This document shows positions 14,165 through 37,519 of a stretch of DNA of 64,000 nucleotides, piece by piece. Under the pieces are notes generated by a model that saw nothing but the letters and a program-made list of their open reading frames with translations, was not told where the DNA came from and ran no database searches. The stretch is from an uncultured Methylomirabilota bacterium (GTDB taxonomy: Bacteria; Methylomirabilota; Methylomirabilia; Methylomirabilales; 2-02-FULL-66-22). Both the position numbers and the translations under genes were made by a program. How positions within the stretch are numbered: position 1 is the first letter of the stretch; each line of letters starts with the position of its first letter. The stretch is taken from positions 2,400,001 to 2,464,000 of the forward strand of contig OY970067.1 in NCBI GenBank assembly GCA_963705305.1. The letters are read 5' to 3'.

Positions 14165-15780
14165 CGGTGTCAAGGCGGATCCCTCCTCTGGATGCCGACG
14201 CATCCGGCGTGGTGTCCTGCCTGCCTCCCCCGGGACCGCTCCCGGGTGATCTCTCCCGCCCCAGCGTAGTCGTGGCATCCGGCCTGCTCGCTGCCTGAGC
14301 GGCCCACCCGGCCGTGTCCGAGCTGCGGAGAGCGGGAGCGGCGCGCCAGGGTCCCCCGGCGGTCCCGGGGGGGCCGCCACGTTGCAGGAATCGCGCTGCC
14401 AGCTCCCCGGGGAAACCAGGATCTGCTACCCCTCAGCGGGCCGCCCGGCAGAGCCCGCCGGTCCGCCGCGGGTCGTAGGGGGTCCCGCGCCGCCACACGC
14501 CCCAGACGATCCGGAGGAGCTTCGCCGCCAGCTCCACGGTGGCCGTGAAGCCGGCGGCGCGGTCGCCCTGGCGCTTCGCCTGCAGCACCGCGAGCCGGGC
14601 CCGGCCGCTCGCCGTCCGCGTGACCCCCCGCGCCGCCTGGGACCAGGGCCCAGCGGAGGAGGCCGCGCCCGCCCTTCGAGATCCGCATCTGTCCCGCGTA
14701 CCGCCCGGACTGGACCTGGCAGATGTCGAGGCCGGCGAGCTTCCGGAGCTGGGAGAACTGCGTGAACCAGGCGATGTCGCCGATCTCGGCGAGGAGGGTC
14801 GCGGCCACCGTGGGCCCGACCCCCGGGATGGTCCGGAGGCCGGAAGCCGCTCGGCGACCGGCGTGCACGCCGCCTCGAGCGCGGCGATCCGGGCCTGCAC
14901 GGCCTCGACCTGGGCCCCGAGGTCGGCACAGGCGGTGGCGAGGCCGAGCGGGAGGCGGCCTTTCGCGACCGCCGGGCGGCCCGGGGCCACCCGCTCCCAG
15001 GCCTGGAGGACCATCGGGAGCTCGACCTGCAGGCGATTCGGGAGCGGGGCTCCCGCCGGGGCCAGACTGGGGCGGAGGGTGGTGCGCCAGCGCGCCTTGC
15101 AGGCGGCGAGCTCACTCCGGGCCCGGCGGAGGCACTTCACCAGGGGGCGCAACTCGGCGAGCGGGCCGGCGGGCCGCGAGTAGAAGAGCACCTTCCCCTG
15201 CTCCAGGAGATCGGCGCAGTTCGCGGCGTCCTTCCGGTCGGACTTGTCCCAGGTCCCGTCCTGGGTCCGGCGGTTCCAGTAGGCCACGCTGCTGGAGAGC
15301 AGCAGGACATCCGCCCCGTGCTGCTCCAGGAAGCTCGCCACCGCCTGGTGGTAGGTCCCGGTGGGCTCCAGGCCGCACCCGACCCCCCGGTCCCCGGTGC
15401 TCCGCTGCGCCGACTGGATCCGGGCCCAGAGCGTGGCGAAGCCCCGGGGGGTGTTCGGGATGGTGAGCGTCGGGACCACCACCCGCGTGTGCGCGTGCCG
15501 GAGGTGCCCCACGTGGGCGGCTTGGGCGACGTCGATCCCGACGAGGAGCCGCGATCGATCCGTCCACAGGGTAGCCTTGAGCGCCCGGAAGCGCTTGACA
15601 CGGGTGGCATTGTCACGGAGGGTAGCCATGGGGTTCTTCCTCCTCTGTGCGGGGCGAGTGGATGGCTCTCTGCACACCCCTACCAATAGCGAGGAAGGAC
15701 CCCTTTTTGAAGCTGCCTTTTTCATGAGAAAGGGGTCACACTCAGGGAGTCTGGCCTGCGCTGGCTCATTCATGCAGGTA
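14165..15780 (-). mobile_element. IS110-family element; transposase 15629-14433 with two frameshifts; ends approximate
   Basis: DEDD RuvC-like motifs (VGIDVA, LEPTGTY, KSDRKDA), IPGVGPTVAATLLAEIGD, SKGGRGLLR; ~265-nt 3' non-coding region ending CTTGACA. Confidence 0.85.
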
Positions 15781-16177
15781 ATACTACGTTGCGACTTTAT
15801 TGACATTATTAGATGCCGGGGCATAGAGAAGGGACGATGCCCCTTCGTGTTCCGCGCTCCCACAGACTCCGAGCGGGGATGCGGGCAGGGCCTGCAACAC
15901 GCCGAGGTCGGGGTGGGCGGCGAATTGAAGACGGCGAGGGCGATGAGGCGCGCGCCCTGGGCGCTGGGGCGGGGCTCGAGGCAGGGATGAGCCAGGGTCA
16001 ATTCATAGCTGCGCCGCGTCCCTGATGATACGTTCCGGAGGACTATGGAAGCCCGCGAGACGCCAGGAGTGTCAGGATGCAACGTCTCCTAGGCGACGAA
16101 TGAGGTGACGGCAACGAAGGAGGTAGCGGGAGGATCCACGGGCGGGACCCGGCCCGCCCGTGGGAGTGCGTAGCGCC

Positions 16178-18610: not shown

Positions 18611-19447
18611 GTGAGTGTCGATTACTCGCGCGAGAACGTGATGACCCTGGATCCCACGACGTTGAAAGCCATGATCACAGAGCGGGGGCATCACACGGTC
18701 GAAATTCAGCTGTATGAGGCGCTGGCCAAAGGGGGCGCGCTCGGGCCGACCGTCGGAAACGTCGTGCGGGAGCTGCTCGCAGTGTGGAGGGAGCGCGGAC
18801 TCCCCTCGGACAGCGGGGATCTGGCCTGGGTCCGTCGCCTCCTCGCCATGGCGGAAGCCGTCCAGAAGGGCGGGACGCTGGATTTGGCAGAGTTTGCCGG
18901 CACGCCGCTGGATGCGCGGGACCGGCAGGTTGTCGAGCGGCTGCTCTTCGAGCGGCGTTCGGTGCGCTACTGGACCGAGGAGGAGGTGCCCGATTGGATG
19001 ATCGACGAGATCATGCGGGCGGGCCTCTGGGCGGCCCATGGATGCAACCTCAACTCCCTGCGCTTTCTCGTGGTCCGGGAACGGAACGAGCCCGGCCTGT
19101 TTCGCGGCTCCGATATCCCCGGGGGCCCCGTGCACATCGTCGCCTGCCAGGACCGGCGCGTGTACTCGATCCAGCCGGGGTATGTGCAATACCCGGACAT
19201 GCTGGAGAAGAACCGCCTGCTGGACTGCGGGGCGGCGATGGAGAACATGGTGCTCATGGCCCACGCCCTGGGGCTGGGGGGCTGTTGGCTGACGTTCCGG
19301 AACGAGATGCTTGCCCGCATCCGGGAGCGATTCCACCTCCCCGCCCACATCGAGATCGTCACCTATGTCGACGTGGGCTTTCCCAAGCAAACGCCGATGC
19401 CCCCCGGCCGCATTGCCGTCCAGGATGCCGTCCTCGTCAGGCGGTAA
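18611..19447 (+). CDS. Nitroreductase-family protein with N-terminal extension
   Basis: ERRSVRYW, AAMENMVLMAHALGLGGCW. Confidence 0.88.
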   Translation: MSVDYSRENVMTLDPTTLKAMITERGHHTVEIQLYEALAKGGALGPTVGNVVRELLAVWRERGLPSDSGDLAWVRRLLAMAEAVQKGGTLDLAEFAGTPLDARDRQVVERLLFERRSVRYWTEEEVPDWMIDEIMRAGLWAAHGCNLNSLRFLVVRERNEPGLFRGSDIPGGPVHIVACQDRRVYSIQPGYVQYPDMLEKNRLLDCGAAMENMVLMAHALGLGGCWLTFRNEMLARIRERFHLPAHIEIVTYVDVGFPKQTPMPPGRIAVQDAVLVRR

Positions 19448-19909: not shown

Positions 19910-21163
19910 ATGCATACTTCTGCGGTGGAGACCCATCACGCGCTCCTGCGGATGCTTCTGTTTGAACCGCAGAAGGCAAGGGGCTTTCTGTTCGAGCATA
20001 ACGCCGAGACGGCGCCGTCCGTGCCCGTTCCCGACTGGTCCCGTCTTGGCGAAATGGCGGAACAGGAGGGGGTTTCCGCAGTTCTGTTCCATAACATCAA
20101 GAAGCATAACCTGCAACATCTCGTCCCGCCGGAATGCTACAGGGACTTGTCCAACCAGTTCCATGTCAACCTGAAGCGCAACCTGCTGGTCATCGGCGCA
20201 TTGCGGCAGGTGCTGGCATCCTTTCAGGAGGCCGGCATTCACTGCATCATCCTGAAGGGCATCGCCCTTGCAGAGCGCGTGTACCCGAATATTGCCATGC
20301 GGGGGATGTCAAACGTCGATATCCTGGTCAGGAAAGCGGATCTCTTCAACGCCGACGAACGTCTGTGCTCCTTAGGATACACTTCGCAAGACAGTACCGC
20401 GACACAGGCGATCCTTAACCCCGCCGGGTATCTCGCCAGCCTGGAATACCGCAAACATGAACCGGCCCCCTTAAGCCTTCACGTTCACTGGCATCCAGTC
20501 AATACGTCGATCCCGGCGGCCATCTTCGCCGAGCGTATCGATATCGACCGGCTCTTGGAACGCGCCACGGCGAGCGTCGTGGCCGACAGCCAGGCCTGGA
20601 TTCTGAGCCCGGAGCATCTGATCATCTACCTTTGCGAACACGCCCTGAGGATCGGCCATTCCTTTGACCGCCTGATTCTCGTCTGCGATATCTTTTACGC
20701 CATAAAGGCCTTTGAAGATACCATCGACTGGGACTTTCTTGTCGAGGAGAGCCGTCGCTTCAACCTCTCCCGGTTCGTGTATCACGGGCTGACCATCGTG
20801 AAATATCATACCTCGTTGAATATCCCGGAAGCGTGCATGGCAAAACTGCGACCGCCCGATATCTCATGGGGGGAAAGGTATTTTCTCACACTCCAGTTCA
20901 ACAACCGGCGAATCAGGGGGAGCAGTTACTTCATCTACCTGACGATGCACAGGGGCTTTTTCGCCAAGATCGCATTCATCGCCCGGACCGTCTTTCCGCC
21001 GGTCCGGATCCTCCGGCAGCGACAGTACCGGAAAGACGTTGCATTCTCAAAATCACTGTATCTCCAGCGAGCCAGGGAGATCATTTCGCACATTTTCCTG
21101 TGGTCCTTTAGCAGGGCGAGCGCTGCTCACGGCAAGAGAAAGATGACGAAGGCCCTTCAGTGA
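19910..21163 (+). CDS. Uncharacterised nucleotidyltransferase family protein (NTP_transf_5-like)
   Basis: ILKGIALAERVYPNIAMRGMSNVDILV, LHVHWH, LILVCDI, IDW. Confidence 0.85.
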   Translation: MHTSAVETHHALLRMLLFEPQKARGFLFEHNAETAPSVPVPDWSRLGEMAEQEGVSAVLFHNIKKHNLQHLVPPECYRDLSNQFHVNLKRNLLVIGALRQVLASFQEAGIHCIILKGIALAERVYPNIAMRGMSNVDILVRKADLFNADERLCSLGYTSQDSTATQAILNPAGYLASLEYRKHEPAPLSLHVHWHPVNTSIPAAIFAERIDIDRLLERATASVVADSQAWILSPEHLIIYLCEHALRIGHSFDRLILVCDIFYAIKAFEDTIDWDFLVEESRRFNLSRFVYHGLTIVKYHTSLNIPEACMAKLRPPDISWGERYFLTLQFNNRRIRGSSYFIYLTMHRGFFAKIAFIARTVFPPVRILRQRQYRKDVAFSKSLYLQRAREIISHIFLWSFSRASAAHGKRKMTKALQ

Positions 21164-22794
21164 CAACCAAGAAAGAACCATCCGGGCTGAATCGAGGGGA
21201 CTGCGGGACTGCTCTGCAGACGGAAGAAGCCACCTTCTTCGAGGAGTGGCTGGCCGCAGGCCAGCCCCCGGAGCAGCTCTCGATCAGCGCCGTCTGCAAC
21301 GCCCGCTGCCTCTTCTGCTCGAACCGGATGAATCCTTTCCCGGTCACGCAAAATGTGTTTCGGGACATTGAAGACGTCAAGCTGCAGCTCTCGTTGAGCT
21401 CCGCCAACCATCAGGGCGATATTCACATGAGCGATTCCCTGCCGGGGCGGATTTCGGAAGGGGAGGCCTTTCTGCACCCCCGGTTTTTTGACATTCTCAC
21501 CCTCGTCCGGGAAAAATTCCTGGCCAATTGCCTGCACTTCACGACCAACGCTTCCCTGCTCGACGAGCGTTTCGTGCAAAAACTCGAACCCTTCCGTCCG
21601 GTCGAAATCAACATTTCCCTGCACTCCACGCAGCCGAAGCTGTGGACCCGGATTTTCCAATCTTCGGAGAGACGAGCCCGGACTGCCTTGAACTCTTTTG
21701 ATCTTCTGAAGAAGCATCACATCGACTTTACGGGAACCATCGTCCCTTTGCCCCGAATTTGCGGGTGGAACGACCTCGAAAACACCTTTGCTTTCCTGGT
21801 GGGCGCGGGGGCCAAATCCATCATTCTGTGGTGGCCTGGGTTCTCGGAAAAAACGCCTGCCGGGTTAAAAAGGGAAATCGAATGCCCCTGGGATGAATTC
21901 GGGGATTTCGTGAAGCACATGCAGGAAAAGTTTCCACGATTTCCGGTGATCCCGCAGCCGAACCCGCTGGAGCCCCGGAGGTTGCCGATCAAGCGGATCA
22001 TGAATTTTACGCTTCAGGGAAACCTGAAGACCTTCGGGGGGGCTTTTCGGCACGTGCTGTGGCTCGTTTCCGAGGCAGCCTATCCGGAAATGTCCAAACT
22101 GGTGGCGGAATTTGCGCAGGATGTCCCCAATGAACACCATGTCTTCCCGGTAAGAAACAGATCTTATGGCGGCAACATCCAGGTCAGCGGGCTGCTGATG
22201 GTCTCAGACTTTCTGGCTGCGGGAACGGAGGCACTGCAGAGGTGGCCAGCCGTCGATCTCGTGCTTGTTCCCAAAATGGCGTTTGACGCCTTCTTTCGCG
22301 ATCTGCAGAAGACGCCTGCCTACAAGATTCCGGAAGGGCTGGGAAGAACTACGTGGTTGGTCTTTGAGAAGGGCTCGTTCCTTTCTCTCAAGGGTCGCGG
22401 GTTCGTCACGCCGGAGAATGATCCCCAAAAGACCCTTGAGAAGTTGCTGAAGGTCATTGACGAATCGATACAGGCGGACAAGCTTGATGTCCTTTCGGCG
22501 ATGGTTGCCGCCTTTCCGATTCCGACCTCGGAAGGCATTCTGAAAGAAGGGGAATTCGGGGACTTTTTGAAGGGGATCAAGAAGGGCCAGTCTCCGACCG
22601 GAGCGTTCGAGAAGCGCGTATTTGAAAAGCTTGACGACCATCGCGTTGTTTGCATGGAAGAGCGGCCGACCGCAGATCCGTCCGAAGCGTCTGCTCGCTG
22701 GGTATTTTTCAGGAGAATAGGAAAGGACTGGAAGCTGGAAATGATTTTCTTTTCGCGCATTTCTGTTGACAGTGGATCAGATGGTTCGCTATGA
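21160..22794 (+). CDS. Radical SAM protein with DUF512-like domain
   Basis: CNARCLFC, GEAFLHP, TTNASLL, VRNRSYGGNIQVSGLLMVSDF; start overlaps the upstream stop. Confidence 0.8.
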   Translation: MTTKKEPSGLNRGDCGTALQTEEATFFEEWLAAGQPPEQLSISAVCNARCLFCSNRMNPFPVTQNVFRDIEDVKLQLSLSSANHQGDIHMSDSLPGRISEGEAFLHPRFFDILTLVREKFLANCLHFTTNASLLDERFVQKLEPFRPVEINISLHSTQPKLWTRIFQSSERRARTALNSFDLLKKHHIDFTGTIVPLPRICGWNDLENTFAFLVGAGAKSIILWWPGFSEKTPAGLKREIECPWDEFGDFVKHMQEKFPRFPVIPQPNPLEPRRLPIKRIMNFTLQGNLKTFGGAFRHVLWLVSEAAYPEMSKLVAEFAQDVPNEHHVFPVRNRSYGGNIQVSGLLMVSDFLAAGTEALQRWPAVDLVLVPKMAFDAFFRDLQKTPAYKIPEGLGRTTWLVFEKGSFLSLKGRGFVTPENDPQKTLEKLLKVIDESIQADKLDVLSAMVAAFPIPTSEGILKEGEFGDFLKGIKKGQSPTGAFEKRVFEKLDDHRVVCMEERPTADPSEASARWVFFRRIGKDWKLEMIFFSRISVDSGSDGSL

Positions 22795-22854
22795 AGGGTG
22801 TATCTTTATTGAACCTATTGAAAAGGATGCCGTAAGCGCAATAGGGGGAGGAAC

Positions 22855-23049
22855 ATGAAAGACGACAGGAAAGAGTGGGTCCCGCCCCAATTGATCGTCC
22901 TGGGCAGGGGAACGCCGGAGGAGAATGTCCTGGGCGGCTGCAAGACCTCAACGCTGACGGGTTCCGGCGCCACGAAGACCAGCTGCAAGAAAAAAACGGG
23001 TTCTACTTGCGCCTCAACCCGGTGCAGCACCATTTCCAAAACGTCTTAG
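22855..23049 (+). CDS. Putative RiPP precursor peptide (64 aa)
   Basis: Strong RBS GGGGGAGG; WxPPxLxxLG leader; C-terminal half with 4 Cys and 18 Ser/Thr; directly upstream of rSAM/SPASM genes and PqqD. Confidence 0.85.
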   Translation: MKDDRKEWVPPQLIVLGRGTPEENVLGGCKTSTLTGSGATKTSCKKKTGSTCASTRCSTISKTS

Positions 23050-23059
23050 GTTTTCGTTC

Positions 23060-25033
23060 TTGGATAGACAAGCGAACCTCAGTAAAAGCGCGAGACGCAT
23101 CCCACGGCTGCCCCTCGAAGGCAACATCGATCTGACCTACCGGTGTAACTGCAACTGCCGCCACTGCTGGCTGTGGCTGCCGGCAAACGACAAAGTCGAG
23201 AAACGGGAGCTTTCATTCGACGACATCGATAGAATTGTGGGTGAAGCCCGGGCGATGGGCTGCCGCAGGTGGCTGATTTCCGGCGGCGAACCCATGCTGC
23301 GTCCCGACTTCGTCGATATTTTCGATATGATCACGCGCCGCTCGCTTTCCTATTCGCTGAATACGAACGGCACGCTGATCACGCCGACCATCGCCCGCCT
23401 GCTGCGAAGAAAAGGCGCGAAGATGGTCGCTCTCTACGGGGCGACCGCGGAAATCCACGATCACATTACGCGGACCCCCGGATCCTTTGCGGCGGTCCTG
23501 CGGGGTTTTGCCTACCTCCGGGAGGCCAGGGCGGGTTTCATCGTCCAGCTCATCCCCATGCGCGACAATTATCATGAGTTCGACGCCATGATGCGGCTCG
23601 CCCGCTCCCTGAGCCCCGTGTACCGCGTGGGCGCACCGTGGCTGTACCTTTCCGCCTGCCGCAGCGCCGTCCGCAACCGCGAAATTTCACGGCAGAGGTT
23701 GGACCCGGCGGATACGATCCGCGTCGAACCGCCCGATGCCGTCGATGACGATGGGCCGATGACCCAGATCGAGGGGGACGGCAAGCCGCCGTCCCGCCTT
23801 CAGCCCGGCGCAGACGGCCGGCTTTTCGAGGCCTGCATCGAAGGATGCCGGGATTTCCACATCGATCCCTACGGCGGTATGACCTTCTGCCCCTTCATCA
23901 AAGACCCTGCGCTGCGCTACAATCTGCGGAAGGGAAGTTTTCGGGAGGCATGGGATGCGTTCATCCCTTCGCTTGCCGAGAAGGTACACGCCGATCCGGA
24001 GTATGAGGAAAACTGCGGCCGCTGCGAAAAACGCGTGGATTGCCGCTGGTGCCCCGCCTATGCCTACCTGGAAGAAGGCCGATACTCGGCGAAGGTCCCG
24101 TACCTGTGCGCTCTTGCGGATGGAACGCGATCTTACAAGGAAAACTGGCTGCGGCATCACCGCCGGTATTTCCGAATTGCCGGCGTAACGATCCGGGTGG
24201 ATTCCGATCTTCCGTTCACGGAAAAGACCTTTGACCCGAAGTTCAAGAAGTTCGAAGCGGAGGGCCCGTCGGAAGATACGATTTCCTTGCGCCATCATTT
24301 TTCGGTCCCGAAATTTGACCGGGACGACACGGGCCAGGAGATGTACCGCCGGGCGCCCTGGGCGATCTACCGCAAGGGCCGATCCTGGATCTATCTGGGC
24401 ATCGGGCCCGGGCGGCGCGATCGATCTATCCACTGCGCGGCCGCATTTAATGAGGGGCATACGCGGGGGCGGATCTACAACCACGGCGAAGCCCGTTTTC
24501 GCCATGGGAACCTGCACGCCCTGACGCTGTTCCCCTCCGATCAGATCCTGCTGGCGCGGGCGCTTGCCGACCGCCAGGCCTGCTTTGTCCACGCCGCGGG
24601 GGTGGACATCGGCGGGAAGGGGCTCCTGCTGGTGGGGCATTCCGGAGCCGGGAAAACCACGGCGGCGAGAATGCTGCGGACGCATGGGGAAGTGCTCTGC
24701 GACGACCGGATCGTCGTGCGCCGCTGGCCGGAGGGGCTCCGCATCCACGGGACCTGGAGCCACGGCGAGCTGCCGGACGTGTCCGCCGGCTCCGCCCCGC
24801 TTTCCGCCATCCTGTTCCTCGAAAAGGCGGATGGAAACCGCCTCGTGCCGGTGACGAGGACCATCGAGATCGCGCGGCTTCTTGCCCAGCATGTGGTGAG
24901 GCCTCTGGTGACGGCCGACTGGTGGGAAAAGATCCTGGCCCTGGTAGACACCGTGGCGCGGGAGGCTCCGGCATACCGACTCGAGTTCGACAAGAGCGGC
25001 CGGATGATTGAGGATGTCGCGAAAATACTGTGA
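23060..25033 (+). CDS. Radical SAM/SPASM protein fused to a C-terminal HPr-kinase-like P-loop domain
   Basis: CNCNCRHC, SGGEP, SPASM CGRC..DCRWCP..YLC; C-terminal HAAGV, GHSGAGKTT, LCDD, HGTW. Confidence 0.9.
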   Translation: MDRQANLSKSARRIPRLPLEGNIDLTYRCNCNCRHCWLWLPANDKVEKRELSFDDIDRIVGEARAMGCRRWLISGGEPMLRPDFVDIFDMITRRSLSYSLNTNGTLITPTIARLLRRKGAKMVALYGATAEIHDHITRTPGSFAAVLRGFAYLREARAGFIVQLIPMRDNYHEFDAMMRLARSLSPVYRVGAPWLYLSACRSAVRNREISRQRLDPADTIRVEPPDAVDDDGPMTQIEGDGKPPSRLQPGADGRLFEACIEGCRDFHIDPYGGMTFCPFIKDPALRYNLRKGSFREAWDAFIPSLAEKVHADPEYEENCGRCEKRVDCRWCPAYAYLEEGRYSAKVPYLCALADGTRSYKENWLRHHRRYFRIAGVTIRVDSDLPFTEKTFDPKFKKFEAEGPSEDTISLRHHFSVPKFDRDDTGQEMYRRAPWAIYRKGRSWIYLGIGPGRRDRSIHCAAAFNEGHTRGRIYNHGEARFRHGNLHALTLFPSDQILLARALADRQACFVHAAGVDIGGKGLLLVGHSGAGKTTAARMLRTHGEVLCDDRIVVRRWPEGLRIHGTWSHGELPDVSAGSAPLSAILFLEKADGNRLVPVTRTIEIARLLAQHVVRPLVTADWWEKILALVDTVAREAPAYRLEFDKSGRMIEDVAKIL

Positions 25034-25060: not shown

Positions 25061-26245
25061 ATGACGGAACGCACGTATGTTGATAAGAGGAATATCGGTC
25101 ATGCCCCCCACTGGGGAGGAGAGGGGCCTCCCGCGGTTCATCTCGACATCGAGCTAACGGAGCGCTGCAACAACACCTGCATCCACTGCTGCATCAACAA
25201 ACCGGCTGGGGACAAGCGGAGCCTGGCCCGCGAGCTTGAGACCTCCGCCTGGAAGGACATCCTCCGCCAGGCCGCCGAGCTGGGGGTGATGACGGTCCGT
25301 TTCACCGGCGGCGAGCCGCTGCTCCGGCAGGATTTTTCCGACCTGTACCTGTTTGCGCGCCGCCTCGGGCTGAAGGTGATGCTGTTCACCAACGCCCGGC
25401 TCATCGGGCCGCACATCGCCGCACTGCTGGCCGATGTTCCCCCCCTCGAAGATATCGAGATTTCCGTATACGGCATGAGCAGGGAGTCCTATGAAGCCGT
25501 CACGGGCGTTGACGGTTCTTACGCCGAGTTCCGCAATGGCGTGCAGTGTCTGCTCGACAGAAAGATCCCTTTCGCTGTAAAAGGAGCGCTGCTGCCGCCC
25601 AATAAACATGAAATGGCGGAATTCGCTGCCTGGGCGGCCGCCAACACTCGGATGGATATCCCTCCCACGTACGCCATGTTCTTTGACCTGCGGGGGCGGC
25701 GGGATTCCGCCGCCAAAGACAGCAGGATCAGGCGCCTGCGCGTCTCTCCCGAAGAGGGCCTGCAGATCCTCACCCGGCATCCGGACCGGTACCTGAAGGA
25801 GATGTCCGAATTCTTTGAAAGGTATTCATCGCCTCCCGGTGACCGGCTGTTCACCTGTGGAATCGGACCGGGTTGCGTGGATGCCTACGGTGTTTTCCAG
25901 CCCTGCCTGTCGCTCCGACACCCCGATTTGACTTCTGATTTAAAAAGAGGCGCCCTGAAAGAAGCCCTGGCGTCCGGAGTCACCCGCCTTCGAGAAATGA
26001 AGGCCACGAATCCGCTTTATCTCAAACGATGCGCACGCTGTTTCCTGAGGGGCTTCTGTGAGCAATGCCCGGCCAAGTCATGGTCTGAACACGGCACGCT
26101 GGACAGGCCGGTCGAATACTGCTGCCGGGTGGCCCATGCGCAGGCCCGGTTTCTGGGGCTCGTCATGGAGAAAGAACGGGCATGGGAGGTCCGCGACAGC
26201 GCAGAAAGAATACAGAACCTCAGAAGGAGAGTGGCGGCGACATGA
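25061..26245 (+). CDS. Radical SAM/SPASM maturase
   Basis: CNNTCIHC, TGGEP, CGIG..QPC, CARCFLRGFCEQCP..YCC. Confidence 0.93.
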   Translation: MTERTYVDKRNIGHAPHWGGEGPPAVHLDIELTERCNNTCIHCCINKPAGDKRSLARELETSAWKDILRQAAELGVMTVRFTGGEPLLRQDFSDLYLFARRLGLKVMLFTNARLIGPHIAALLADVPPLEDIEISVYGMSRESYEAVTGVDGSYAEFRNGVQCLLDRKIPFAVKGALLPPNKHEMAEFAAWAAANTRMDIPPTYAMFFDLRGRRDSAAKDSRIRRLRVSPEEGLQILTRHPDRYLKEMSEFFERYSSPPGDRLFTCGIGPGCVDAYGVFQPCLSLRHPDLTSDLKRGALKEALASGVTRLREMKATNPLYLKRCARCFLRGFCEQCPAKSWSEHGTLDRPVEYCCRVAHAQARFLGLVMEKERAWEVRDSAERIQNLRRRVAAT

Positions 26246-26550
26246 AGAAGATACGGATGGACATGGTTTTTTCCCACTCCAGCGATGTGGTGTCGAGGGA
26301 AATTGACGGCGCTTTGATTATCGTCCCCCTCACATCCGGCGTGGGCGATATGGAAGACGACCTGTTTTCCATGAATGAATCCGGTACGGAAATCTGGAGC
26401 ATGCTGGACGGCAAAAAGACCTTGCAAGAGATCGTCGAGGCCCTGGCTCGGCAATACCATGCCGAGCCGGGAGAGATCGAACGGGACGTCGCTGGAATCG
26501 TCGAGGAATTGCTCAAAAGGAGAATGCTTGTCGAAGCGACCGCCGCGTGA
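26242..26550 (+). CDS. PqqD-family protein (RiPP recognition element)
   Basis: VVSREIDG, FSMNESGTEIWSMLDG, IERDV..IVEELLKRRML; ATGA overlap with the upstream gene. Confidence 0.92.
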   Translation: MKKIRMDMVFSHSSDVVSREIDGALIIVPLTSGVGDMEDDLFSMNESGTEIWSMLDGKKTLQEIVEALARQYHAEPGEIERDVAGIVEELLKRRMLVEATAA

Positions 26551-27058
26551 ATACCTGCATCCCGCGATGCGGAAAGTCGGCCTGCCCCTTTCCGGAGAGG
26601 CCCTGATTGCGCTCATGCAGACTGTGCATGGGAAAGGATTCCCCTTCCGATTCAGCGCCGGCGGATACAGCATGACGCCCTTCATCAGGGATGGCGACGT
26701 GATCACCGTCTCTTCCCTGGCTTCGCATGCGCCGCGTCGGGGGGACGTCGTGGCGTTCGTCCACCCGGAAACACAACGGCTTTGCCTGCACCGGGTGCTG
26801 TCCGTCCATGGAGACAGCTTCTTCATCCAGGGCGACAATATGCCTGAAAGACCGGACGGTGTGATTCCGCGAGAGGCGATTCTCGGGCGGGTCACGGGTA
26901 TCGAGCGCGCCGGCAGGAGAGTCAGACTGGGGCTCGGCCCCGAACGCCTGCTGGTCGCCATTCTGAGCCGATGCGGAGGCATGGCCCTGACCCGGCGGTA
27001 TGCCGGCTGGCTCCATGCCTATTTCAGCAGGAGCCACGGATCGTGCGAAAAGCGTTAG
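26528..27058 (+). CDS. S24/S26-family (signal peptidase-like) peptidase; start uncertain
   Basis: GYSMTPFIRDGD, GDVVAF, LHRV, QGDN, ILGRV. Confidence 0.85.
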   Translation: MSKRPPREYLHPAMRKVGLPLSGEALIALMQTVHGKGFPFRFSAGGYSMTPFIRDGDVITVSSLASHAPRRGDVVAFVHPETQRLCLHRVLSVHGDSFFIQGDNMPERPDGVIPREAILGRVTGIERAGRRVRLGLGPERLLVAILSRCGGMALTRRYAGWLHAYFSRSHGSCEKR

Positions 27059-28188
27059 TATCCTATACGAGCCTGCCCGATTTTGCGCTCTGGGATGCAC
27101 TCGGGGACAGGCGGATTCCGCTGTCCTTCGATCTCGAGGTGACCGCCCGCTGCAACAACAATTGCCGTCATTGCTACATCAACCTCCCGCCGGACGATAG
27201 CGCGGCTCTGCGTGATGAACTGACGCTGGAGGAAATCAGCCGCATTGCGGACCAGGCTGTCTCCCTCGGGTCCCTCTGGTGCCTGATAACGGGCGGCGAA
27301 CCTCTTCTCCGAGCAGATTTTCCTGATCTGTACCGGCTGCTGAAGAGCAAGGGCCTGTTGGTTTCCCTTTTTACCAATGCCTGCCTGGTCACGGAGAAGC
27401 ACATACAACTGTTCAGGAGCTATCCCCCGCGGGATATCGAGGTCACCGTGTATGGCGCCACGGGCGAGACGTATGAACGGGTGACCCGTAGTTCCGGCTC
27501 CTATGCGGCGTTCCGCCGCGGCCTGACCCTGCTGCTCGAGGGGGGGGTCAAGGTGAATCTGAAGACCATGGTGCTGCGTTCCAATAAGCATGAACTGCCG
27601 GCTATCGCCCGTTTCTGCCGAGAAAGAACGAAAGGCCCTTTTCGCTTCGATCCCATGCTGCACCTGCGGTTTGACGGAAACGAGCGAAGAAACGATGAAA
27701 TACGCGCAGAGAGGCTGACGGCCGAGGAGATCATCGGGATTGAACAGGCGGATCCGGAGCGGTTGGCGGCCATGGAAAAGAGATGCGGCATGCTGGAGAC
27801 AGCCGCCGCCGAGGCAGGACCGGATTATCGTCTTTTTCAGTGCCAGGCGGGAGGAGAGAGTTTCGCCGTGAGCTGCAACGGTCTCTTCCGTCTCTGCTCG
27901 TCTCTGTGGCAGCCTGACTGTCTCTACGATCTGTGCCAGGGCACGCTGGCCGAAGCCTGGTTCGATTTCACCCCGCGGATACGCGCAATCACCTCGGACA
28001 ACACTGAATATCTCGAGACCTGCCGCCTGTGTCCCCTCATGAATCTGTGCCAATGGTGCCCCGCCCATGCCCATCTGGAGTGCGGCCGCATGGATGAACG
28101 GTGTGGATACTTCTGCCGCGTGACACAGGCACGGGCGGAAGCGTTCGGGAAGCGGGAAAAGGCGGCATCCACATCCGAAGAAAGATGA
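27043..28188 (+). CDS. Radical SAM/SPASM maturase
   Basis: CNNNCRHC, TGGEP, CQAG..RLC, CRLCPLMNLCQWCP..YFC. Confidence 0.93.
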   Translation: MRKALVSYTSLPDFALWDALGDRRIPLSFDLEVTARCNNNCRHCYINLPPDDSAALRDELTLEEISRIADQAVSLGSLWCLITGGEPLLRADFPDLYRLLKSKGLLVSLFTNACLVTEKHIQLFRSYPPRDIEVTVYGATGETYERVTRSSGSYAAFRRGLTLLLEGGVKVNLKTMVLRSNKHELPAIARFCRERTKGPFRFDPMLHLRFDGNERRNDEIRAERLTAEEIIGIEQADPERLAAMEKRCGMLETAAAEAGPDYRLFQCQAGGESFAVSCNGLFRLCSSLWQPDCLYDLCQGTLAEAWFDFTPRIRAITSDNTEYLETCRLCPLMNLCQWCPAHAHLECGRMDERCGYFCRVTQARAEAFGKREKAASTSEER

Positions 28189-28208: not shown

Positions 28209-28385
28209 TGAAGTCGACGCCACCCTGACGCTCTGGGGGGATCCCTGGCGCGGAGGTGGCTACGGTCGACAACAGTCCCGAGCCCGTGGAACGCTGGATT
28301 GCCAAGGGCCGAGCGGCGCTCGTGCTCGCCATCCCGAAGGGGGAGACGACAATCGCGGAGGCCGCCCGCCGGCACGGCCTCAGGG
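28209..28385 (+). pseudogene. IS3-like element left end with truncated OrfA (DUF1153-like HTH)
   Basis: TG-start end; [39 protein letters not shown]. Confidence 0.65.
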
Positions 28386-31013
28386 CCGGTCGAGGCGGCC
28401 GACCTGGACAGGCACGCGCGGAAGATCGCCGTCATGGGGGAGGGGCAGGAAATCGGGGCCCCACACCGCCAGCTCCAGCTCGTACCGCCCGGGGGCGGGA
28501 GGCGCGGGGATCACCCAGGCCACGGGAACGGCTTGGCCGGGAAACACGTCGTCCGGGAGGGGGACAAGGTCGGTCGAGACGGGGCGCCCCGCCAGGAGCC
28601 AGCGCGTCCGCAGGATGAAGCATCCGAAGTAGGACCGGGGCGTGGCCAGCCACAGGGCGCTCCGGCCCGCTCCCCAGATCGGCCACTCCGCCCCCAGCTC
28701 GGGCAGGTCCGCCGAGGCATACCAGAGGGCGAGATCGTGAAGCGTGGCGAGCCGTCGGAACGGCATCGCGTCGGCGGTGCCGCGGGCGGTGGGCCGCCAC
28801 GGGACGGCTCCGACATTTCGGACCAGCGCCGACGCCTGGATCGGCTGGCTGACGCCGACCGCCAGCTCCGGGGGCCCGAGCCAGGTCAGCGCCGCGCGGG
28901 GCTCTCCGCTCGAGGACGCTTCCGGGGAGACGAGGACGGGCCGGACCAGGCGGAAGACGTCTCCCCCTATCTCCAGACGGTAACTCCCCGGGGACCGGGG
29001 GGTTTCCAGGGGGAGGGCGGTCAGGTACTGACCCCCCGCCGGCAGGAGCGTCGGGAGGTAGGTCGCGACACGCTCCTCGACCCGGGGGCCGCCGTCCGCT
29101 GGAATCCAGGTCACCCGGACCGGTCGGATCCCGAGGGGGCCGGGGTTGACCCACGGGGCTCCGGATCGTTCCAGGAGGAGGAGCCGGAGCCGGAGCGGGC
29201 GCCCGGCGGGAAGGCCCGCAGGCAGCGATGCCTCCGCATCCAGGCCGGCTGCCCGCCGCGAGGCGGGCGGGATGCGATACAGCTGGATGTCCGGCAAGGC
29301 AAGGATCCGCTCCAAACCCGGGATCGGCGGCGCGCCCTGGCGCCAGGCGGCGCGCGCCGCCTCGGGCAGCGCATCCAGGTGCACCGCCAGTGTCCGAACG
29401 CCCAGGGCGCCCAGCGCCTCCACGACGCGGGGGGACAGCCCTTCGCCGTTCACCAGGGCGGCGATCTCGTAGTAGGAGCCGGGCCGGAATCCGGAATAGC
29501 CGTTGACCAAGGGCGCCCAGTCGCGCGTACTCTGCAGCGCGTAGGTGGCCTCGGTCAGCGGGTCGTAGATGGAAAAGGGGATCTCCAGGACGGCGCCCTC
29601 CGCGGCTCGCTCGCGCAGGATTCGGGTGACCGCAGCGTCGCCGAGGGACACGGGCCGGAGGGGGACGGGGACATGGAGGGCCTCCAGCGTCATGGCCGCC
29701 AGGGCGAGGCCTCCCAGGATGGCGCCGGGCTGCGGCAGCGCCGGCCGTCGCTCCCGCAGGAAGTCGGCGAGGCGGGCGAGACCGGCGGCCGCGAAGAGGG
29801 CCAGGGGGACGAGGGCGAGGAGCGCGAAGCGGGCGGGGACGCGAATGCCGCCGAGCCCCGGCAGGCCAAGGAACAGACCGAGATAGGGGAGCGGCCACTG
29901 GGCCGGGGCGTCGCCCCAGATCAGGATGGGGCCGAGCGCCAGGACCAGGGCCGTCGCGCCCACCAGGGCCAGCGCAGGCGCTGCGGCGGGCCAGGCCGCC
30001 CCCCCGCGCGTGGCGACCCGCCGCCGGGACGCCAGCCCCCAGGCGGCCAGGCCCCAGGGCAGGAGGCCGAAGAAGAGGGCGCTCTCCCAGGGAGCATCCC
30101 GGCGCCGGAACTTGGCCGTGGCGGCCCCGTAGAGCCAGTTGGCCTGGTCGGCGGCAAGAAAGCTGGCCGGCTCGGCGCTGTAGCGCACGAGGTCGCCGAG
30201 GCCACGCTGATAGCCCCACTGGGCTTGCGAGTGGGCATAGGGGAGCGCCACGGGGAGAAAGAGGAGGGCCCCGACGAGCAGGGCGACGGCGAGGTGCGAC
30301 AGGGCCTGCAGGCGAGGCCATCGCCCCCGCTCCTGCCAGGTGCGCACCGCCAGGTAGGGGACGAGGAGAAGCCCTGCCATGATGCCCAGGTAGGCAGAGC
30401 TGAGGAACTGGCACCAGAGCAGACCGCTGGCGGCCACAGCTAGGGTCCACCGCGGCCGCCGGAGCCACGCCTCCACGGCCAGGAAGACCAGGGGAGTCCA
30501 CCAGGCGGACGACAGCTGCAGGTGAACCAGGTGCGGGAAGCGGGGGAGCGCGAACGCGTACACGAACCCCGCCACCAGGGCGGGCCCCCGGCGTCCGAGG
30601 AGGGCCCAGGCCAGCCAGGCCATGCAGAGTCCATTGAGGACGAAGGCGCCCAGCAGGGTCAGATTGCAGGCGAGGATGGGATTCCCCGTCAGAAAGTAGA
30701 GCGGGGCGAAGAGCGGCTGGTCGCCCAGCAGGCTGTCCGAGAAGGCCAGCGCATCGCGGGCCGGGTAGAATATGTTGGCCTGAAAGAGCCGCAGGGGGGC
30801 ATGAGCTAGTGCATGGGCCCCCCAGCTCAGGATGTAGGCGGTGAGAGGGGGGTCGGAGGCGCTGGCGAGGTTTTCGTGGGTGATGAGGTGATCAGTGAGA
30901 TGCGCCGCCAGCGGCCAGGTCAGGCCCACGGCGGTGATCGCGTAGAGGGCGAGAGCGCCAAGGAACAGGCGGGCTGTCGGGCGGCCTGCGGGCGAAGGCC
31001 CGGGCTGAGACAT
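28380..31013 (-). CDS. Large polytopic membrane protein, YfhO/GT-C glycosyltransferase-like, with C-terminal Ig-like (NBR1-type) domain
   Basis: Many TM segments, ANIFYP, RVPARF, PLVNGYSGF, VRNVGAVPW, PPAPGRYEL. Confidence 0.7.
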   Translation of the reverse strand: MSQPGPSPAGRPTARLFLGALALYAITAVGLTWPLAAHLTDHLITHENLASASDPPLTAYILSWGAHALAHAPLRLFQANIFYPARDALAFSDSLLGDQPLFAPLYFLTGNPILACNLTLLGAFVLNGLCMAWLAWALLGRRGPALVAGFVYAFALPRFPHLVHLQLSSAWWTPLVFLAVEAWLRRPRWTLAVAASGLLWCQFLSSAYLGIMAGLLLVPYLAVRTWQERGRWPRLQALSHLAVALLVGALLFLPVALPYAHSQAQWGYQRGLGDLVRYSAEPASFLAADQANWLYGAATAKFRRRDAPWESALFFGLLPWGLAAWGLASRRRVATRGGAAWPAAAPALALVGATALVLALGPILIWGDAPAQWPLPYLGLFLGLPGLGGIRVPARFALLALVPLALFAAAGLARLADFLRERRPALPQPGAILGGLALAAMTLEALHVPVPLRPVSLGDAAVTRILRERAAEGAVLEIPFSIYDPLTEATYALQSTRDWAPLVNGYSGFRPGSYYEIAALVNGEGLSPRVVEALGALGVRTLAVHLDALPEAARAAWRQGAPPIPGLERILALPDIQLYRIPPASRRAAGLDAEASLPAGLPAGRPLRLRLLLLERSGAPWVNPGPLGIRPVRVTWIPADGGPRVEERVATYLPTLLPAGGQYLTALPLETPRSPGSYRLEIGGDVFRLVRPVLVSPEASSSGEPRAALTWLGPPELAVGVSQPIQASALVRNVGAVPWRPTARGTADAMPFRRLATLHDLALWYASADLPELGAEWPIWGAGRSALWLATPRSYFGCFILRTRWLLAGRPVSTDLVPLPDDVFPGQAVPVAWVIPAPPAPGRYELELAVWGPDFLPLPHDGDLPRVPVQVGRLDRP

Positions 31014-31169
31014 GCTCAGGCGTTCCCGCACGGCATCAGCCCGGACATGTCACGTACACCGCGGAGGCGCCAAAGGCGCGGAGACAACGACAGCCTCCTC
31101 GAGCTTGCGGAGGGGGGCCTTGCATCCTCGTGTTCCGTGCTCCCCCATCCGGGGACGGGCAAACGCACG

Positions 31170-33669: not shown

Positions 33670-34025
33670 GGGGGGCCCGACCGTCGAGGGGACGTTGCTT
33701 CTTTGTTCTCCTTGCTCCAGACAGACTGAAGAGGTGCCGGCGTAATCCGCAAACACCCGCCCCGCCCACCGGCTCCGCCGACCCCGCCGGCCCCGTGTCC
33801 CTTGGACAGACAACCGCGCGGCAGGACGTTGCCTATTCAGTAAGGCGGTGAGACACTGCTGAGGGCCGGGGCTGGAAGCGAGGCGATGGCATCTGAGCAC
33901 CGACGGCGGAGAAGCCGTACGACGCCTTGCGGGAGACGATCGATACATCCGAGTTCCTTACCGCGCCCAATGGTCGAGTCCGGGACCCGGAGAGAGGTCC
34001 GGGCGACAGCGAAAGGAGGCTCTCG

Positions 34026-34253
34026 ATGCTCGTGATCAGCGCGAAGGGGATCATCTATGATGTTCCGGAAAAAGTGCTCGAGAAGCATACGTTTCCCCGC
34101 TGGATCGACAAGAAGGACGAGATCCTGAAGATGTTCACCTCCCTGTCCAAGGTCATCAAGGAGTCGAAGACGGGGCTGAAGGGAGATGTCGAGGGGCAGG
34201 GGTGCTGCAACCGCTACGCGAACTGGTGCCCGCCGGGAGGAGCGGACATCTGA
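34026..34253 (+). CDS. Putative RiPP precursor peptide (75 aa)
   Basis: RBS AAAGGAGG; charged helical N-region; C-terminal GDVEGQ-GCCNRYANWCPPGGADI; upstream of two rSAM genes. Confidence 0.8.
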   Translation: MLVISAKGIIYDVPEKVLEKHTFPRWIDKKDEILKMFTSLSKVIKESKTGLKGDVEGQGCCNRYANWCPPGGADI

Positions 34254-34404
34254 GCGATCCGGCCAGCCGGGGCTTCACGATGACACGACGGATGCCGCCA
34301 GCGGATCATTCGGAGGCTGAAGGGTGCCGCCGGCCCATGCGAGGCCCTGTCTGGAAGCGGGAAACCGTTGGCGGGCAGCGGTCCGCTCCTGAAAGGCCCA
34401 GGCC

Positions 34405-35595
34405 ATGAAGAGGGCCCCCGCTCCACAAAAGGGCGTCCTGCGAGACCTTGCCGGTGTCACCGCGTGTCCGCTGACGGCATGCAACCTGAGGTGCTCGTAC
34501 TGCTACCAGGATGCCGAGCAGTTCTCCGGTTCTCCGCAGTACCTGCCGGGCGTGCATGATCCGGTCCGGCTCGCCGCAGGCCTGGCGCGCCTGCTGTCAC
34601 TGTCCCGGAGGCCGAACCATTCCATCGTCCTCTCGGGGGGTGAGCCGCTCCTCCTGCCGGAATCGTGGTACCGCGCCTTCTTTTCGGCCATGGATGGCGG
34701 GATGCCCGCCTCGAAACAGATCCGCTATTCCCTGCAGACCAACATGCTTCGCTGGGACGATGGGGTCATGTCGCTCCTGGCGGAGCGCCGGGCGCACTTC
34801 TCGGTCCATTACGACGGCCCCGGGGGGGACGCTTCGCTCCGCGCCGAGGAGCGACGGGCAAACATCGAGCGGCTGCACGCCAAGGGGTGCTCGATCACCG
34901 CGATCGTGGTGGGAACCCCTCCGGCCCTGGCGGAGCTCTCCGCCACCCTCGAGCTGCTCCGACGCTGCGGGGTCAAGCATTACCACCTGAACTGCGTCTC
35001 CGGGGAAGGGCGGGGGGCCGGATCGCCGCAGCCCGATCCGGCGCGGAGGGCGGAGGCCGAGTTCGAGAGCGCGTTCTTCGCCTCCCAGAGCGACTTCGCG
35101 ACCTGGGACCCCGTCATCATGAACAAATTCGCGAGCCATGCCAGGTGGGCGGCCGGGGGGAGGAAGCAGCCGCCCACGCCGGTCCCCCAGCGGTGCGGCG
35201 CCGGCACCAAAACGGTCGTCATCTCGTCGGACGGGACGATCTTTCCGTGCGGGTTCTTTCCGCGGGCCGCGGGCCCGATGGGGCACATCGCCGGCCTCCC
35301 GGCGCTCGGCGCCGAGGCGGCCCGGTCCATCTCCCGCTGCGGGAAGGCGAGTCCGTTCTTCGAAGAGCGGTGTCCGGAATGTCCGGCCCTTCCGATCTGC
35401 GGGGACTACTGCGCCCTCACGCCGACCGGGGACGGCGGCTTCATGGGCTCGTTCTGCGAATCGCAGCGCCGTCTGATGGCCCTGATGGAGGAGAGTCGGC
35501 GGCTGGCGACTCTGATTGCCAGGCGGTTTCTGGCGTACCGGACCGCCCGCCCGGGCGAGCGGCCGACGACCTGCGGGGTCACGTACGGCGAGTAG
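34405..35595 (+). CDS. Radical SAM/SPASM maturase (anaerobic sulfatase maturase-like fold)
   Basis: CNLRCSYC, SGGEPLL, LQTN, SVHYDG, CGAG..IFPC, CPECPALPICGDYC..FC. Confidence 0.92.
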   Translation: MKRAPAPQKGVLRDLAGVTACPLTACNLRCSYCYQDAEQFSGSPQYLPGVHDPVRLAAGLARLLSLSRRPNHSIVLSGGEPLLLPESWYRAFFSAMDGGMPASKQIRYSLQTNMLRWDDGVMSLLAERRAHFSVHYDGPGGDASLRAEERRANIERLHAKGCSITAIVVGTPPALAELSATLELLRRCGVKHYHLNCVSGEGRGAGSPQPDPARRAEAEFESAFFASQSDFATWDPVIMNKFASHARWAAGGRKQPPTPVPQRCGAGTKTVVISSDGTIFPCGFFPRAAGPMGHIAGLPALGAEAARSISRCGKASPFFEERCPECPALPICGDYCALTPTGDGGFMGSFCESQRRLMALMEESRRLATLIARRFLAYRTARPGERPTTCGVTYGE

Positions 35596-36345
35596 CGGAA
35601 TGGCCCATCGGCGGGCACCCGTCCACCGAGCGGGTCCCGCCGCAACCGGGGGATTGCCCGCCGGCAGGGAGCGCACAGACGAGCCGGGAGGGACGGGTGG
35701 GCGCGTCGCGCCGGGGGTCCGGCACTGTTCTGTATGTCAACTCGGCGCTGCGGGAGAGCGACTGGTTTATCGTTCCGACATCGATCACCACGCTCATGCA
35801 GACGCTGCCGCCGCGCTGGCATCGGCAGGGCGTTTTCGCGTGGGAGCTGACCGATGCCCTGATCCGCTCCGCCTCGGCGATCATCCTCGATTGCCACTGG
35901 TTCACTTCCCTGCCGGAGACCATCGGCCTCGTGCGGTGGGTGCGCGACCTCTGCCCGCAGACGCCGGTCATCCTGGGCGGCTACACGGCCCAGCTCTTCC
36001 ACCGGGAGCTTCTGCCTCTCGTCGGCGCGGCCTATGTCATTCGGGGAGACAACGAGCAGGCCTTCCCGCGCCTGGTGGATGCCCTCTGCCGGGGGGATGT
36101 CGACGAGGCCCGCCGCCTGCCGAACGTTGCCGGCGCGGATTTCGCCAATCCCATCACCTACCGATTCGGGCCGGAGGATTATGCGGGGATTTTATTCGGG
36201 ATCGACTGGTTTCCGTCGTACGCGCGCCGCATCGCCATGATCAACAAGGGGAACTGCCTCGGCATGGACCACGAGTTCTACCGCTATCCGCTCCTGGTCA
36301 TGTCCAAGGGCTGTTCCCAGGATTGCCCGTTCTGCCTGGGGAGCA

Positions 36346-37519
36346 CTAGTCTAGTGTGTCATAAATACGGTGACTTATAGTACGTACTCTGGTATGCTCC
36401 TCGGTGAGGAGGAGCAAGCCATGCGTGTGGCGGTGCCGATTGTGCTGAGCCCGCAGGAACGCACCATCTTGGAACGCTGGGCACGGGGGCGGCGCACCCC
36501 CGCGCGCCTCGTGCGCCGGGCGCAGATCGTCCTGCGCGCGGCGGCGGGGCAGCGGAACGACGAGGTCGCCCGGGCCCTGGACACGGATCGCGAGTGTGTG
36601 GGTCGGTGGCGGACTCGCTTCGCCCAGCAGCGGCTGGCCGGGATCGAGCGGGATGCCCCGCGCCCCGGCCGGACGCCCGCCATCGCCCCGGCGGTCCTGC
36701 AGCGCATCGTCACCCTGACGACAACCAGCGCGCCGCCCGCCGCCACCCACTGGAGCACGCGGACCCTGGCGGCCGCGGTCGGCGTGAGCCCGAAGACCGT
36801 GCACCGGGTCTGGCAGGCCCACGGCCTGAAGCCGCATCGGGTCCGCCCGTTCAAGGTGAGCCGCGACCGGCGGTTCCTCGAGAAGCTGACCGATGTGGTG
36901 GGGCTGTACCTGAATCCCCCTGAGCACGCGTTGGTGCTGTGCGCCGACGAGAAGAGCCAGATCCAAGCGCTCGACCGCACCCAACCCGGCCTCCCGCTGA
37001 AGAAGGGCCGGTGCGGCACCCTGACCCACGACTACAAGCGGAACGGCACGACCACGCTCTTCGCCGCCCTGGGGCTCGTGACGGGCCAGCTCATCGGCAC
37101 GTGCCTGCCCAAGCATCGGCACCAGGAGTGGCTCCGGTTCCTCCGGCTGATCGACGCGCAGACCCCGCCCGACCTGGACCTCCACCTGATCGTGGACAAC
37201 TACGCCACCCATAAACACCCTGCGGTCCAGCGCTGGCTCGCCCGCCACCCACGCTTCCACATGCACTTCATTCCGACCAGCAGCTCGTGGTTGAATCTCA
37301 TCGAGCGGTGGTTCCGGGAGCTCACGACCAAGCGGCTCCGCCGGGGCGTCTTCAAGAGCGTCGCCGACCTCATCGCCGCCATTGAGGCCTTCATCGCACA
37401 CCACAACCGCCACCCCCGGTCGTTCACCTGGACGGCCAAGGTGGAGGACATCCTGGCGAAAGTCGAGCGGGCTCGAGCAGTGCTGCATAAGATGGCATCT
37501 GTGTGACACGGTAGACTAG
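36346..37519 (+). mobile_element. Complete IS630-family element inserted at a CTAG site
   Basis: Imperfect terminal IRs CTAGTCTAgtGTGTCA / TGACACggTAGACTAG; TA at 36347-8 and 37517-8. Confidence 0.95.
36421..37506 (+). CDS. IS630 transposase
   Basis: [52 protein letters not shown]. Confidence 0.96.

Follow-up and report, generated by a model that had tools for sequence, protein, structure and literature searches.

A conserved radical SAM peptide cluster of an uncultured Methylomirabilota bacterium whose precursor cysteines track its SPASM enzymes

Gene cluster and surroundings

The window analyzed here is a 64,000-nucleotide stretch (contig OY970067.1, positions 2,400,001 to 2,464,000, assembly GCA_963705305.1) from an uncultured Methylomirabilota bacterium. 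It carries a same-strand run of eight genes on the forward strand, with four overlapping junctions, in the order nucleotidyltransferase, DUF512 radical SAM, precursor, rSAM1-kinase fusion, rSAM2, RRE, SipW-type peptidase and rSAM3. A short ORF at 22855-23049 is the precursor of this conserved eight-gene RiPP operon. It is preceded by a strong ribosome-binding site (AGGGGGAGG, 22843-22851) three bases before the ATG, and is single-copy in the genome.

Two accessory genes lie upstream of the precursor. The first encodes a PsmN/LppN-like NTP_transf_5 nucleotidyltransferase (19910-21163, 417 aa from the ATG at 19910; PF14907, 169.5 bits), with a homologue in 31 of the 62 related loci that we classified. 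The second, whose start overlaps the nucleotidyltransferase stop, encodes a 544-aa radical SAM/DUF512 protein (21160-22794; PF04055 and PF04459) found in 8 of the 62 loci, seven of them belonging to the window's own subfamily. A search at E<=1e-20 gave 240 homologues of this protein, which accompanies the Ser/Thr/Lys-rich precursor subfamily and whose C-terminal part is unmatched in Pfam.

Downstream of the precursor is a 657-aa fusion protein. Its N-terminal part is the radical SAM/SPASM enzyme rSAM1 (23060-24145; PF04055; the TTG start is uncertain), and exactly seven SPASM cysteines are present in all 21 rSAM1 orthologues. The remainder is an HprK-like kinase domain (24146-25033) with a weak PF07475 match and 43 bits to TIGR04249 (cut-off 125). 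Its motifs, H511, the Walker A residues K532-T533 and D548-D549, are invariant in 7/7 aligned sequences, and in many relatives the kinase is a stand-alone gene. Next come rSAM2 (25061-26245, 394 aa), recognized as a radical SAM/SPASM enzyme by domain searches and alignment, and a 102-aa stand-alone RRE of the PqqD family (26242-26550; PF05402, 62.5 bits), whose best natural PDB match is the lasso RRE TbiB1 (E=1.4e-6). They are followed by a 176-aa S24/S26 archaeal-type signal peptidase (26528-27058, start taken from the alignment; TIGR02228, 42.9 bits, cut-off 51.85) with the motifs G-x-S48-M-x-P, H88, D103 and D110, predicted to be the leader peptidase. The last gene encodes the radical SAM/SPASM enzyme rSAM3 (27043-28188, 381 aa), the sole SPASM enzyme left in the smallest cassettes. 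Alignments demonstrated that catalytic motifs are intact in the SPASM enzymes, kinase and peptidase; 75% of rSAM2 and 88% of rSAM3 orthologues have a candidate eighth SPASM Cys. No exporter was found in the cluster, and an MsbA-like exporter is present in some relatives. Promoter and terminator scans of the cluster gave results at chance level.

Related cassettes were used to delimit the cluster. The upstream nitroreductase-family gene (18611-19447) was excluded because it has no homologue in the classified loci. The flanks also hold an IS110 transposase (14433-16082) and an 883-aa membrane protein (28380-31031) without Pfam or NCBIfam match; neither the nitroreductase nor the membrane protein is conserved beside related cassettes. 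A second small radical SAM cluster lies in the window at 33927-36380 and 36370-37506. It includes a 108-aa ORF ending in a Cys-rich tail and a radical SAM protein (34405-35595) of the PapB/anSME-like group, below cut-off; the following gene is apparently cut by an IS630-type transposase.

The precursor is conserved beside homologous radical SAM genes, as the precursor reading of a first-pass annotation of this DNA requires. A leader match was present at 44 of 51 loci retrieved by their enzymes ("enzyme-first" loci), against 0/35 control loci with distant radical SAMs, and all seven loci without a match are on contigs of 10.3 kb or less. Gene order is kept in 8/9 genome loci (Desulfonema, Desulfobacteraceae, Thermodesulfobacteriota and Deltaproteobacteria) and is rearranged in an Actinomycetes MAG. 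In three class samples centred on known carriers, rSAM3 orthologues occurred in 21/301, 19/251 and 14/201 genomes. Only 1/20 other genomes of the window's genus has the precursor, and the cluster has 59% GC against 66%, in the lowest 3% of windows compared; together these suggest that the cluster was gained horizontally.

The precursor peptide family

Translation yields the peptide described in the first-pass annotation: 64 aa, with Cys at 29, 44, 52 and 57 and 18 of the last 36 residues Ser or Thr. Residues 1-28 (22855-22938) form the leader, in which the [YW]xxPxL lasso-type motif begins at W8 and is followed by RGxPEExVLxx; the cut probably falls after G28. The core (residues 29-64 plus stop, 22939-23049) starts with C29-K30 and ends with S64. 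The ORF is not a chance one, because all 134 candidate close homologues have E<=0.1 and the best 120 of these 134 are 48-83% identical. In the alignment of the best 120, W8, P11, L13, E22-L26, C29, K30, C44 and C57 are invariant. A profile of the 120 close homologues recovered an unnamed superfamily of 2,255 clusters at 50% identity (E<=0.001), with the wider consensus WxxPxLIVLxRGxPEExVLxxCK...C...C...S. The precursor has no match and no family model in Pfam or NCBIfam 20.0; a lasso model is matched weakly by at most 15/131 family members, with a best E of 0.0037. The L-A-G-C of the precursor resembles a lipobox motif, a reading set aside since the leader has no hydrophobic stretch.

More distant members were drawn from the best 150 of the 2,255 profile matches, 148 of which were new proteins. 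The Trp-to-Cys distance is 21 residues in 144 of the 148, and these 144 form the distant set. Lys follows the first Cys in 142/144, the last Cys lies six residues before the end in 130/144 (mostly seven in the window's subfamily), and the peptide ends in Ser or Thr in 139/144, compared with 17% Ser/Thr at internal positions. Because the distant matches came from a profile that includes the core, the terminal-residue count was repeated with a leader-only profile at enzyme-first loci, giving terminal Ser/Thr in 33/33 and 47/50 precursors. The gap between first and second Cys is variable, mostly 13-20 residues, and Cys29 stands at a fixed distance from the leader. Only two residues keep a fixed spacing to a Cys, namely the Lys directly after the first (+1) and the terminal Ser six residues past the last (+6). 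Around the second and third Cys no acceptor side chain recurs at a constant distance, and the close-homologue and wider core comparison revealed no conserved aromatic or other target residue.

The core had also been described as Ser/Thr-rich and free of Asp/Glu, which is true of this peptide (none occurs after residue 23) and does not hold as a family trait. Mean core Ser/Thr is 31% among the 120 close homologues (50% at most) and 19% among the 144 distant ones, 124 of which have Asp or Glu in the core. A 50% Ser/Thr, Asp/Glu-free core is thus confined to the window's subfamily. This composition, 18 Ser/Thr with four Cys in 36 core residues, would suit a lanthipeptide-like route in which many Ser/Thr are phosphorylated by the kinase and converted by elimination into dehydro residues, to which the Cys then add. 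We regard that route as extremely improbable: Ser/Thr richness is not conserved in the wider family, no lyase or cyclase family is represented among the cluster proteins, and the characterized HprK-like peptide kinases modify one residue. A genome search with PF05147 (LanC-type cyclase) gave no match, as did its control.

Cysteines and SPASM enzymes

The number of core cysteines was compared with the number of SPASM enzymes in 62 loci, classified by hand with the locus data already seen, on locus content and an rSAM1 search across 45 genomes. For each of the 35 one- and two-enzyme genomes the rSAM1 check covered the whole genome, and the three-enzyme call of four loci drew on evidence at genome level. 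Loci were left out if they were truncated, frameshifted, duplicated or ambiguous (L005/L136, L009-L011, L014, L018, L020, L025-L027, L030-L038, L050-L056, L058, L060, L063, L080, L118, L124, L137, L138, L140, L146, L149, L153, L157 and L163). The modal Cys count is two where rSAM3 is alone (7/11 loci), three with rSAM2 and rSAM3 (20/24) and four with all three enzymes (25/27), with the qualification that most genomes are incomplete MAGs in which enzyme absence is uncertain and rSAM2 was detected only near the search threshold. Individual positions follow individual enzymes. The penultimate Cys (C52 here) is present in 25/27 loci with rSAM1 and 1/35 without, and a third or later Cys five to eight residues from the end (C57 here) in 50/51 loci with rSAM2 and 3/11 without. 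Several rSAM3-only loci have T, S or A seven from the end where their relatives have Cys.

Since kin are not independent, pairs were also compared on a tree built from a concatenation of four cassette proteins (57 rows, with no usable rSAM3 in five loci). On this tree rSAM1 changes state at least six times, and 5/5 independent pairs on supported branches agree between rSAM1 and the penultimate Cys, at p=0.0625, which is not below 0.05. For rSAM2 and the last Cys, the commonest pairing gives agreement in 2/4 pairs and no difference in the other two, without any reversal. A tree built on rSAM3 alone left only three supported pairs. We conclude that rSAM1 tracks the penultimate Cys strongly and that rSAM2 tracks the last Cys more weakly.

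There are exceptions. One kinase-less clade contributes four two-enzyme loci with five Cys, and four one-enzyme loci have 1, 3, 4 and 5 Cys, at least two of them truncated or degenerate. Nor does the rule hold for five sister cassettes, which have a single, more distant radical SAM and three-Cys peptides. The five-Cys clade (L144, L145, L147 and L148) has neither kinase nor rSAM1, and its two extra Cys may form a disulfide.

The match between Cys count and enzyme count lends comparative support to the earlier proposal that the Cys are radical SAM substrates, which is likely because they come and go with particular enzymes. The established outcome for SPASM enzymes acting on Cys is a thioether (PMC6231123, in the part available), and one thioether per SPASM enzyme is likely on this sequence comparison. 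An alternative is that the Cys stay free, pair in disulfides, or act as ligands of a metal or of an auxiliary Fe-S cluster, with the enzymes making C-C or C-O links or epimerizing other residues. The auxiliary clusters of rSAM2 and rSAM3 are possibly fully ligated, Cys number equals enzyme number plus one so that at least one Cys is likely not a donor, and in the structure of CteB Aux I is bound by a substrate Cys that does not react (available part of PMC6231123). We nevertheless rate this alternative as quite improbable, given the appearance and loss of individual Cys with individual enzymes, the absence of a conserved target residue in the cores, and the frequency of odd Cys numbers (three in 43/144 distant cores), which simple disulfide pairing does not explain.

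The linkages themselves may be of several kinds. We favour alpha-carbon (sactionine-type) links, since no side chain that could act as acceptor is conserved with a constant offset. The seven-Cys SPASM set of rSAM1 is the pattern linked to an open site in CteB and AlbA (PMC6231123, part available). The eighth Cys in rSAM2 and rSAM3 could fill that site as in SuiB and anSME, and this optional residue makes the chemistry of these two enzymes less certain. Neither sequence nor fold searches point specifically to a thioether-forming enzyme. The top family and fold matches of the SPASM enzymes (AhbD, StsB, ScmE, BlsE and PqqE) are all far below cut-off, and a fold model of rSAM2 (pLDDT 70) matches BlsE, PqqE, SkfB, SuiB and CteB about equally. 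ESM Atlas matches are 'hypothetical protein' clusters only (0.92-0.93). Other Cys chemistry, namely ranthionine side-chain thioethers, or oxidative decarboxylation of the terminal Ser/Thr by rSAM2 (as by MftC on Tyr) with closure of an aminovinyl-type ring by the last Cys, is in our judgment unlikely. It would account for the fixed distance from last Cys to terminus, for the Lys adjoining Cys29 and for the high rank of the decarboxylases AhbD, MftC and BlsE among the weak matches. It is opposed by the lack of an acceptor side chain conserved at a set spacing from the second or third Cys, by the terminal Ser kept in 9/11 loci without rSAM2, and by the fact that none of the 25 best models shown for rSAM1-3 is that of a ranthipeptide maturase.

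On these comparisons we lean toward a pathway in which each of the three SPASM paralogues links the sulfur of one core Cys to another residue's carbon, and Ser64 is phosphorylated by the HprK-like kinase. By precedent from LPP and lasso systems, the RRE would first bind the WxxPxL leader. rSAM3 would then act on the Cys29-Lys30/Cys44 unit, a pairing seen in their co-occurrence, with Cys44 most likely the sulfur donor and Cys29 or Lys30 the putative acceptor or anchor. The spare Cys is most likely Cys29, because its distance from the leader is fixed while the gap to the second Cys varies. rSAM1 would use Cys52 and rSAM2 Cys57, pairings that co-occurrence shows strongly for rSAM1 and more weakly for rSAM2, and rSAM2 would probably close a small ring from Cys57 onto the C-terminal residues.

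In the next step, modelled on PadeK and PsmK/PsmN, the kinase would (poly)phosphorylate the terminal Ser, and the nucleotidyltransferase may decorate the phosphate. The terminal Ser/Thr is indeed the best candidate site for the kinase, in agreement with the first-pass annotation. PadeK-type kinases act on a C-terminal Ser (available part of PMC9266682), and the His/Lys/Asp-Asp set that matters in these enzymes and in BsfK (parts available of PMC9266682 and PMC10368454) is spaced here as in BsfK H148/K169/D186-D187 (PMC10368454). In the available parts of PMC13381572, PMC9266682 and PMC10368454, the sites of HprK-like peptide kinases are the terminal Ser or core Ser3, one residue per peptide. 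We also considered that the rings form as proposed and the kinase modifies Thr31 (core position 3), with the terminal Ser only a ring acceptor. Thr31 is present in 106/120 close homologues, the SipW-using LPP system phosphorylates Ser3 (PMC13381572, part available), LppK and BsfK modify Ser3, and the precursors of four related genomes without kinase, which form the kinase-less clade, still end in Ser. Modification of Thr31 appears very improbable to us, as position 3 is Ser/Thr in only 45/144 distant and 17/50 enzyme-first precursors, far fewer than have a Ser/Thr terminus; the terminal Ser persists where rSAM2 is missing and the kinase kept; and Thr is not accepted by LppK (available part of PMC13381572). 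In the one genome with neither kinase nor rSAM2 the precursor ends in Phe. The terminal residue may thus serve both kinase and rSAM2, as judged from few lineages.

Following phosphorylation of Ser64, the SipW-type peptidase would remove the leader before Cys29, as LppS cleaves an RRE-presented leader (PMC13381572, part available). Cleavage at this position would fit the drop in conservation after C29-K30 and the intact peptidase. A complex prediction of RRE, peptidase and precursor residues 1-40 scored 0.60, against 0.67 for the control.

Known systems and novelty

The lasso-type leader motif noted earlier is present together with a stand-alone RRE. That the product is not a lasso peptide also holds, on other grounds than the missing Asp/Glu first given. 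No macrolactam cyclase occurs among the cluster proteins (the six PF00733 matches in the genome are all outside the window), and the B2 transglutaminase-like protease PF13471 has no match in the 98.9% complete genome, a model that was matched in 2/14 controls. Lasso systems of the paeninodin/pseudomycoidin type (PadeK, PsmK/PsmN) share the WxxPxL leader, terminal Ser, His-Lys-Asp-Asp kinase and nucleotidyltransferase; in place of the cyclase and B2 protease, the present cluster has SPASM enzymes and an S26 peptidase.

The LPP system (lppAKBSDN), in the parts of PMC13381572 available, shares the stand-alone RRE, archaeal-type signal peptidase, HprK-like kinase, NTP transferase and [YW]xxP leader, and likewise has no lasso cyclase. 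As with LPP, many relatives of the window's cluster adjoin polysaccharide genes and ABC exporters. LPP differs in its leader (YxxPxVLxHQxIxFETxxS), in phosphorylation at core Ser3, in its MsbA-like exporter, a feature lacking from the window's cluster, and in having no radical SAM among its core genes as described in those parts; a term search of the available supplement found Radical_SAM once, as a column head. The leader of the window's family, in contrast, reads WxxP...EExVLxx and runs into CK; its cores hold 2-4 conserved Cys and finish with Ser, and its cassettes encode one to three SPASM enzymes.

The uncharacterized SynChlorMet cassette (TIGR04248-04251) shares the RRE, two SPASM enzymes and the HprK-like ScmC, and true Scm loci also carry S26, nucleotidyltransferase and ABC genes. 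None of its four models comes anywhere near cut-off in the window's cluster (30/100, 43/125, at most 84/400 and at most 90/400), whereas 9/301 genomes elsewhere have members over cut-off. Small ORFs of Scm loci do not match the window's leader profile, and the family was rejected as the source of the missing SynChlorMet precursor. Candidate SynChlorMet precursors with YxxP leaders and Cys/Gly-rich, often repeated cores were seen in six of the nine loci fetched (L108:5797-6033, L109:5774-6034, L111:14432-14644, L113:6455-6607, L114:1995-2372 and L115:362-658).

Sactipeptide and ranthipeptide systems (AlbA, SkfB, StsB; CteB, PapB) share the Cys-rich core, RRE and seven-Cys SPASM enzymes, and the CxxxCxxC and auxiliary-cluster Cys that sactipeptide maturases need are intact here. 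No maturase model reaches cut-off, and AlbA, SkfB and StsB all stay far below it (StsB 84/625, AlbA 51/850). In well-known systems of this kind one enzyme serves several Cys of a peptide, whereas here separate paralogues track separate Cys and a kinase/peptidase module is added. By analogy, the cluster appears to resemble LPP and paeninodin in leader handling and phosphorylation and sactipeptides in ring closure. By the features tested, it belongs to none of lasso, LPP or SynChlorMet.

Further variants were observed among the related loci. Behind the three-Cys cassettes of L013, L015 and L019 lie genes for a LynF/TruF/PatF-like prenyltransferase (PF19156; about 113 bits to TIGR04445, whose cut-off is 140) and for a geranylgeranyl-reductase-like flavoprotein (L013:5660-7684, L015:9131-11223 and L019:2303-4471), which suggests lipidated peptides outside the cyanobactin setting; L014, L016 and L018 have ORFs of the same size as these genes. 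Eleven leader matches, nine with four Cys, surround one three-enzyme cassette at L028:3964-11599, a natural peptide library. L040, L042, L045, L048 and L052 are sister cassettes that encode one radical SAM each and peptides with a YxxP leader and three Cys. Two others, L081:6204-6350 and L082:2307-2441, combine an LPP-like YxxP...FET leader with Cys and a terminal Ser, a possible bridge between LPP and the window's family.

No description of this system was found in the full-text literature searched, which left subscription papers mostly outside, so that an unseen report is possible; the daptide paper PMC10036551 does not cover this cluster in its available part. We interpret the cluster, from its gene content and comparisons, as a new variant of RRE-dependent radical-SAM peptides with an apparent one-enzyme-one-cysteine rule. 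More tentatively, and with some doubt, it may stand for a new class: a modular line of paralogues, each SPASM enzyme owning one Cys and one ring, with ring number readable from gene count and a terminal Ser that is both part of the last ring and phosphorylated or phosphoglycosylated. If true, thousands of hypervariable cores in anaerobes, with up to 11 leader matches per locus, would pass through this line. The proposal makes specific predictions for a very large family, namely which enzyme owns which Cys, where the phosphate sits and where the leader is cut. It would link the LPP platform and the orphan SynChlorMet cassette to radical-SAM macrocyclization in sulfate-reducer relatives and other uncultured bacteria, and its site-dedicated, core-tolerant cross-linking enzymes would serve peptide engineering.
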